A stretch of 64,000 nucleotides of DNA from the NCBI RefSeq assembly GCF_041886205.1, contig NZ_CP169029.1; one strand, 5' to 3'. The DNA is from Escherichia coli (GTDB taxonomy: Bacteria; Pseudomonadota; Gammaproteobacteria; Enterobacterales; Enterobacteriaceae). A program made the position numbers. Positions 48,901 through 51,900 of this stretch are shown here, one piece after another (the stretch's first letter is position 1; the number at the start of each line of letters is the position of its first letter).

Positions 48901-51900
48901 TGGGTACGTTGTAGCACCGTTGCGCGAATTTCTCTGCCAAAATCAGTCAGATCGCGACAATTACGCACACCTGTCAGATCGCAGAATGCCTCATCAATAC
49001 TGTAAATCTCGACGCGGGGCGATAGTTCTTCCAGCGTCGACATCACCCGATTGCTCATGTCTGCGTAAAGCTCATAATTGCTGCTAAAGCAAACCACACC
49101 ACAGCGACGAAACAGATCTTTTTGTTTGAACCAGGGATCGCCCATTTTAACACCCAGCGCCTTTGCCTCAGCGTTTCGGGCGATAACGCAACCGTCATTA
49201 TTCGATAGCACAACCACCGGTTTACCCCATAAATCAGGGCGAAACACCGTCTCACAGCTGGCATAAAACGCGTTTACATCACAGAGGGCAAACATCAGCG
49301 CATCGCCTTAACGACGTGGATCACCACACCAAAGACATCCAGCGTATCTTCGCTACTGATGGTAATGGGCGAGTACGCACTGTTCATGGGAATAAGCTGT
49401 ACCGTCGGGCGTAGTTGCAATTTTTTCACCGTAAACTCGCCGTCAACAGCAGCGATGACAATATCACCATGGCTGGCGGTAATAGCGCTATCGACAATCA
49501 GTAAATCACCGTCACTAATTCCACCATCAATCATAGAATCACCACTTGCTTTGACGAAGTAAGTCGCGCTGGGATGCTGGATCAACAGTTGATTCAGATC
49601 GATGCGCTGTTCAACGTAATCTGCTGCCGGTGAAGGAAAGCCACACTGAACAAGATCGCTAAATAGCGGAAAAGTCACAATTTCGCGGAGATCCGCAGGC
49701 TTGATAAACAACATAATAATCTGCCTGAAGTTATACTGTTTTTATATACAGTAGTCTGTTCTTGCCAGCAGATCAATACTGATTCAGGCTATCAATATTT
49801 GTCGCTGTATAGACTGCTGATTTTTCGTTCTCTTATCCTGTGCTCACGTGGCCTTCTGGCGACGACGCTCATCCAGCAGAAATGAAAAATATCACCCGGC
49901 AAAAAAATAGAATAGAAGCATTCGCCATAATGACATTAAACATTGTTTGATATTTATCATATTAATAGAAATAAAGACATTGACGCATCCCGCCCGGCTA
50001 ACTATGAATTAGATGAAGTAAAATTTATTAATAGTTGTAAAACAGGAGTTTCATTACAATTTATATATTTAAAGAGGCGAATGATTATGACTGAAATCGT
50101 TGCAGATAAAACGGTAGAAGTAGTTAAAAACGCAATCGAAACCGCAGATGGAGCATTAGATCTTTATAATAAATATCTCGATCAGGTCATCCCCTGGCAG
50201 ACCTTTGATGAAACCATAAAAGAGTTAAGTCGCTTTAAACAGGAGTATTCACAGGCAGCCTCCGTTTTAGTCGGCGATATTAAAACCTTACTTATGGATA
50301 GCCAGGATAAGTATTTTGAAGCAACCCAAACAGTGTATGAATGGTGTGGTGTTGCGACGCAATTGCTCGCAGCGTATATTTTGCTATTTGATGAGTACAA
50401 TGAGAAGAAAGCATCCGCCCAGAAAGACATTCTCATTAAGGTACTGGATGACGGCATCACGAAGCTGAATGAAGCGCAAAAATCCCTGCTGGTAAGCTCA
50501 CAAAGTTTCAACAACGCTTCCGGGAAACTGCTGGCGTTAGATAGCCAGTTAACCAATGATTTTTCAGAAAAAAACAGCTATTTCCAGTCACAGGTAGATA
50601 AAATCAGGAAGGAAGCGTATGCCGGTGTCGTCGCCGGTCCATTTGGATTAATCATTTCCTATTCTATTGCTGCGGGCGTAGTTGAAGGGAAACTGATTCC
50701 AGAATTGAAGAACAAGTTAAAATCTGTGCAGAATTTCTTTACCACCCTGTCAAACACGGTTAAACAAGCGAATAAAGATATCGATGCCGCCAAATTGAAA
50801 TTAACCACCGAAATAGCCGCCATCGGAGAGATAAAAACGGAAACTGAAACAACCAGATTCTACGTTGATTATGATGATTTAATGCTTTCTTTACTAAAAG
50901 AAGCCGCCAAAAAAATGATTAACACCTGTAATGAGTATCAGAAAAGACACGGTAAAAAGACACTCTTTGAGGTACCTGAAGTCTGATCAGCGATTATTCT
51001 CTCCATGTACTCAAGGTATAAAGTTTATCACATTTAAAAATACAGACGTTTTTTAAAGATTGAGAGTTACCTGTTGATAATAAGGTATCGGGTAACTCTC
51101 ATTATGACAGAGCGCTTTCAAAAACAGGGCTACGAAATGGCGAGCATCCAGACGTATATTAAGAAAGCCCCATCAACATCTATTAAATTTATCACTGCGC
51201 CCAGTCAGGTTTATTTAAGATATGATCCTGCCAGTCAATCACTTCTGATTCTTTCACTGCGATATGACGCACAGAGATACGTTCACCATGCATTGCCGCT
51301 TTCGAACCAGTAAGCAGCGGATGCCACGCAGGTAAATCTTTACCTTCCGCCAGCAAACGATAAGCGCAGGTCATTGGTAGCCATTCGAATGTTGGCAGAT
51401 TTTCACGGGTTAATTTAATGCAGTCGGGCTCAAACTCGAAACGACGTTCGTAGTTCCGACATTGACAGGTTTTAATATTGAGCTGGCGACAGGCGACGTT
51501 AGTAAAGTAGATTTCGTCGGTGTCTTCATCCATCAGTTTATGCAGGCAACACTGACCGCAACCATCACACAACGACTCCCATTCCGCATCGCTCATTTCG
51601 TCCAGGGTTTTACTTTGCCAGAAAGGTACATCGCTCATCAGGTGTTCCGCCATTACGTTAAAACGCACCTTATAACCAGTCTGGCACAGCGATGCAAGTT
51701 TTGCCGCCGCTTTCAGGCGGCAAAAAGTATTACAAAACGCGAGTTGTCAAAGAATGCCCATCGAAAGTGACTGTCAGCTCATCACCGCTTTGCAACGGGC
51801 CGACGCCATCAGGCGTGCCTGTCAGCACAACGTCACCGGCTTTGAGGGTAAAAAACTTGCTCATATAAGCGATCAGCGGAACAATTTTATGGATCATGTC

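Follow-up and report, generated by a model that had tools for sequence, protein, structure and literature searches.

Genomic context of the umuDC operon

The window analyzed here is a 64-kb stretch of Escherichia coli DNA, in which the umuDC operon, encoding DNA polymerase V, lies on the minus strand. The operon is bordered by hlyE at one end and by dsbB and nhaB at the opposite end. The following features are considered:

48027..49295, minus strand: umuC, 422 aa, Y-family catalytic subunit of DNA polymerase V (open reading frame and NCBIfam NF002955)
49295..49714, minus strand: umuD, 139 aa, autoproteolytic subunit of DNA polymerase V (open reading frame and NCBIfam NF007621)
49734..49753, minus strand: LexA operator (SOS box) of umuDC (sequence, matrix score, published box and conservation)
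49748..49753, minus strand: candidate -10 hexamer TACTGT, coinciding with the left LexA half-site (inferred from its geometry to the -35-like hexamer)
49771..49776, minus strand: TTGATC, a -35-like hexamer and putative umuDC promoter element (suggested by spacing, comparison and a synthetic promoter)
50087..50986, plus strand: hlyE, divergent neighbor of umuD (open reading frame)

Both products score above the curated cutoffs of their NCBIfam models (163 bits against 110 for UmuD with NF007621, and 894 bits against 431 for UmuC with NF002955), and the start codon of umuC overlaps the stop codon of umuD by one base. The Cys24-Gly25 cleavage site, Ser60 and Lys97 were all found in UmuD by direct check. 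The locus has the composition of a umuDC operon, namely a LexA-like S24 peptidase with the Ser60/Lys97 dyad (UmuD) followed by Y-family UmuC. Many E. coli chromosomes with annotated umuD, umuC, and hlyE match a 796-bp stretch, which covers umuD and the intergenic region, at 100% identity, and this stretch has matches in 5421 of 5426 complete E. coli genomes; the window is thus part of the E. coli chromosome. E. coli carries lexA and recA, and neither gene is located within the 64-kb window.

A disrupted form of the operon was observed in E. coli G3/10 (NZ_CP060075.1): this strain retains an intact box and umuD, but its umuC gene, intact in the window, is reduced to a 153-bp pseudogene. This remnant abuts an insertion encoding a WYL-domain protein, a hypothetical protein, and a Mov34/MPN/PAD-1 family protein.

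Sequence and statistical exceptionality of the SOS box

A sequence-only reading of this DNA had proposed a SOS box at 49734-49753, and both coordinates and sequence are exact, with no mis-read: direct reading of the window gives TACTGTTTTTATATACAGTA at 49734..49753 on the plus strand. Only the orientation calls for adjustment, in that the plus strand had been quoted while the genes lie on the minus strand and the operator is usually written as the reverse complement, TACTGTATATAAAAACAGTA. The site is a 20-bp palindrome with arms TACTGT and ACAGTA and an 8-bp A/T spacer, and its location upstream of umuDC also holds, since it precedes the start codon of umuD in the intact operon by 19 nt.

Within the whole 64-kb window, TACTGT-N8-ACAGTA occurs only once at zero mismatches, and this occurrence is the umuDC box; allowing two mismatches adds three further matches, all unremarkable. 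Considering that 12 bases are specified, about 0.004 exact matches would be expected per window (64000/4^12). In comparison with the SOS-box consensus TACTG(TA)5CAGTA (PMC6590174), 18 of 20 positions agree, the two mismatches being confined to spacer positions 12 and 14, and both half-sites of the CTGT-N8-ACAG pattern are perfect. The consensus match asserted in the sequence-only reading is thereby borne out.

That reading had also suggested a position weight matrix scan. We built a LexA matrix from 14 published E. coli sites (Table 4 of PMC3009722); the umuD site, together with the sbmC site that is identical to it, was left out so that the scoring would not be circular. On this independent matrix the umuDC box is the best match of the window with 26.7 bits, which lies inside the range of experimentally accepted LexA sites and at its top (14.4-27.2 bits for the published set on the same matrix). 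None of 300 dinucleotide-preserving shuffles of the window reached this value; their best scores averaged 12.1 bits, with a maximum of 19.3 bits. The umuDC promoter stretch has been described as carrying 'two SOS boxes' (PMC9074414). However, our matrix scan finds one site above 5 bits in 49690..49830 and no second LexA-like site above that score there, and we reject a second box in this stretch.

Conservation in E. coli, plasmids, and other species

A 121-bp promoter query has matches in 5418 of 5426 E. coli genomes, each with at least 95% identity. Five lineages were chosen across the identity range of these matches and aligned with the window. All 20 positions of the box are invariant in the six lineages, and A/G variation is found 2 nt upstream and 3 nt downstream of it.

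Nine plasmid-borne umuD homologues with 48-60% amino-acid identity were sampled. In seven of the nine, a LexA box scoring 20.8-27.6 bits precedes umuD or the gene that opens the operon. The other two plasmid copies (L009 and L015) have no LexA box; the region immediately upstream is replaced by an insertion, which is a group II intron (ltrA) in one copy and an element bearing merR in the second. These two copies may have escaped SOS control or may be silent.

The exact 20-mer TACTGTATATAAAAACAGTA was then searched in one genome per species. It occurs at no fewer than 120 places, and the matches listed with named taxa all belong to Gamma- or Betaproteobacteria. Among the matches listed, it lies directly upstream of umuD-umuC homologues in at least nine further loci (from Enterobacter, Lelliottia, Serratia, an Enterobacteriaceae MAG, and Advenella) and upstream of a Y-family polymerase 25-29% identical to UmuC in at least ten more. 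Identity of the box across species is partly built into a search for the exact 20-mer; the informative observations are its adjacency to umuD and the divergence of its flanks. In nine umuD loci of other species, the upstream flanks share only 7-19 of 40 bases with the window. The site is therefore kept upstream of orthologues and homologues of umuD while its surroundings diverge.

We also sampled ten loci in which the 20-mer precedes genes other than umuD, and in all ten the downstream gene encodes a product acting on DNA: recA, imuA (twice), the error-prone polymerase dnaE2, dinB, two radical-SAM proteins (one named as a putative DNA modification/repair protein), topoisomerase III, a DnaQ/DinG-like exonuclease, and a tyrosine recombinase (integrase). 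Such a distribution fits a general LexA operator.

Proposed promoter architecture and mode of repression

On the minus strand, TTGATC is followed after 17 bp by TACTGT, the left half of the box. Judging from this geometry and from comparison with other loci, the two hexamers probably represent the -35 and -10 elements of the umuDC promoter. A hexamer of the form TTGnnn, or TTTACC, is found 17-18 bp from TACTGT in eight of nine other umuD loci, whose flanks have otherwise diverged. A 47-bp synthetic promoter derived from this stretch, in which the spacer and box were kept and TTGATC was replaced by TTGACA, is tight and SOS-inducible (PMC9074414). A consensus promoter scan of our sequence did not report a promoter at the box, as TACTGT agrees with TATAAT in just three of six positions.

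Since TTGATC lies 17 bp from the left half-site, bound LexA most likely lies over both the -10 element and the start of transcription, and repression would occur by occlusion. In an undamaged cell, a LexA dimer would occupy the two CTGT/ACAG half-sites. The left half-site would double as the probable -10 element, with transcription most likely starting inside or just after the box, and bound LexA would exclude RNA polymerase, leaving almost no basal expression of umuDC. Upon DNA damage, RecA filaments on single-stranded DNA stimulate self-cleavage of LexA (general mechanism reviewed in PMC6590174); the operator would then be emptied, and umuD and umuC would be transcribed. As the match to the consensus is among the best of the regulon, tight repression and a large induction ratio would be expected.

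Alternative explanations of the palindrome and control of hlyE

Short palindromes do arise in A/T-rich intergenic DNA and the arms of this one are just 6 bp long, so a chance occurrence without regulatory role has to be weighed. However, the small number of exact matches expected per window and the failure of every shuffle to reach its score speak against chance, as do the invariance of the box next to variable bases and its recurrence before umuD homologues with unrelated flanks; we consider a fortuitous origin extremely improbable. The same inverted repeat could form a hairpin with a 6-bp stem and an 8-nt loop, which raises the possibility of a DNA or RNA structure (cruciform, terminator, or mRNA structure) rather than a protein-binding site. 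The predicted fold is weak (-2.9 kcal/mol, z = -1.3) and is equaled by 24 of 200 shuffles, and a search for terminator-like sites found none. Moreover, transcription probably starts inside the box, so that the full hairpin would be absent from the mRNA. We thus reject a hairpin or terminator role, whose probability appears negligible. Nothing in the sequence speaks against an operator of umuDC, and we conclude with very high confidence that this palindrome of 20 bp serves the chromosomal umuDC operon of E. coli as its only LexA operator. This conclusion draws on its sequence, position, statistical exceptionality, conservation, and linkage to umuD homologues as analyzed here, and, for binding of LexA and induction by DNA damage, on published work with the identical sequence.

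A further question is whether the box also, or instead, controls hlyE, the divergent neighbor with which umuD shares a 372-bp intergenic region. In favor of this idea, hlyE is listed as UV-induced by Courcelle et al. 2001, as cited in PMC3009722, and its expression rose late after chromosome breakage (PMC2685091). Against it, the start codon of hlyE is 333 nt away from the box, and the matrix scan of 49690..49830 gives just one LexA-like site above 5 bits. Upstream of hlyE, the inverted repeat TTGATATTTATCAT at 49947..49960, which we take to be the FNR/CRP-type site of the hlyE promoter, is 194 bp away from the LexA box. In addition, hlyE was down-regulated after UV in the tiling-array study (PMC3009722) and is missing from lists of LexA-regulated genes (PMC6590174). 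Control of hlyE by this operator is therefore very unlikely. An indirect influence is likewise very unlikely: LexA bound at the operator, or activity of the umuD promoter after release of LexA, would modulate the hlyE promoter about 200-300 bp away, for instance by altering local supercoiling or the occupancy of nucleoid proteins. If true, such modulation could account for the conflicting reports on the UV response of hlyE.

The hlyE gene of the window encodes 299 aa. Near 50620..50640 it lacks, in frame, 12 bp that are present in the common allele, with four residues missing in KEAYAG[..]VVAGPFGL, presumably in the hydrophobic beta-tongue region. The shorter gene is a minority allele: of roughly 4,240 records with full coverage, about 3,700 contain the longer form. 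In many other genomes just part of the hlyE stretch is present, and some hlyE genes are annotated as incomplete.

Other LexA-like sites in the window

The second-best match to the LexA matrix is TACTGGATATTTAAACAGGT at 54111..54130, located in the intergenic region between ycgJ and minC, whose starts are about 240 nt and 257 nt away, respectively. It scores 21.6 bits, which is within the range of accepted LexA sites and was reached by none of the 300 shuffles. Its approximate heterology index, calculated with our own 16-site matrix, is 6.3, i.e., between uvrD/cho and ruvA/polB. The site is kept in five E. coli lineages, one of them with a T1-to-C change, and this is little informative because the region is 99% identical. 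We found no mention of this minC-upstream site in the searchable literature, and it is absent from LexA-regulon lists; minC and ycgJ are unmentioned in the SOS papers PMC3009722, PMC8072944, and PMC6590174. In the same intergenic region, the 13-mer ACTTGCCTCAATA occurs twice, at 54100..54112 and 54291..54303 (191 bp apart), and its first copy runs into the LexA-like site at 54111..54130. The pair could be a duplicated promoter or regulator site.

The third match, TTCTGGTTTAATAAACAGCA at 52246..52265, scores 17.6 bits and lies within the coding region of ycgM. It is probably a chance occurrence, as 5 of 300 shuffles reach the same score.

Regulation of umuDC reported in the literature

umuDC is included among genes with a known SOS box (PMC6590174 review). 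Its operator has a heterology index of 2.77, among the best of the regulon, and basal expression of a umuDC-gfp fusion was not detectable (PMC2994835). The umuD promoter is controlled by LexA and needs high UV doses for full activity, and it has been classed as a 'late' promoter, with late peaks at high UV dose only (PMC5999292). After ciprofloxacin treatment, umuD and umuC mRNAs rose by about 4 log2 units, umuDC mRNA was already induced at 10 min, and the heterology index was found to track fold change but not timing (PMC11002266). The classical view that tight LexA binding delays transcription of umuDC is thus disputed (PMC5999292 versus PMC11002266).

By setting the cell's supply of mutagenic DNA polymerase V, the operator influences stress-induced mutagenesis and the evolution of resistance, as established for E. 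coli, and the present strain carries the standard intact operator and operon. In practice, the site is of use as a verified positive control when this window is scanned for LexA boxes.

Comparison with known operators

Operons resembling umuDC on plasmids, annotated as umuD and Y-family polymerase genes, carry their box just upstream of the first gene in seven of the nine plasmids sampled, and these boxes differ from that of the window by 1-4 bases. In one plasmid (L014), the box precedes a dinI-like gene that is itself ahead of umuD. We assume these operons to be of the mucAB/impCAB/rumAB type. In Salmonella enterica, umuDC has a single LexA box 15 bp upstream of umuD and shows 20-fold induction by DNA damage; the heterology index of Salmonella umuD is 4.38 as defined in PMC8072944, a scale that may differ from that underlying the value of 2.77 for E. 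coli. The LexA box of E. coli sbmC (gyrI) shares an identical core TACTGTATATAAAAACAGTA (20 of 20 bp), but its flanks, locus, and regulated gene differ from those of umuDC.

The closest counterpart is the umuDC operator of E. coli K-12 (umuDp), with which the window shares the identical 20-mer and 5 flanking bases, the distance to umuD, and the neighboring genes. In comparison with the K-12-like sequence, the operator is unchanged, and this strain departs from it at three intergenic positions that lie farther upstream. The minus-strand 25-mer ACTACTGTATATAAAAACAGTATAA agrees in 25 of 25 bases with the LexA motif given for umuD in PMC3009722 (Table 4), which confirms the earlier equation of the site with the known umuDC operator. 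The operator is thus already known base for base and represents no new member or variant of its class.
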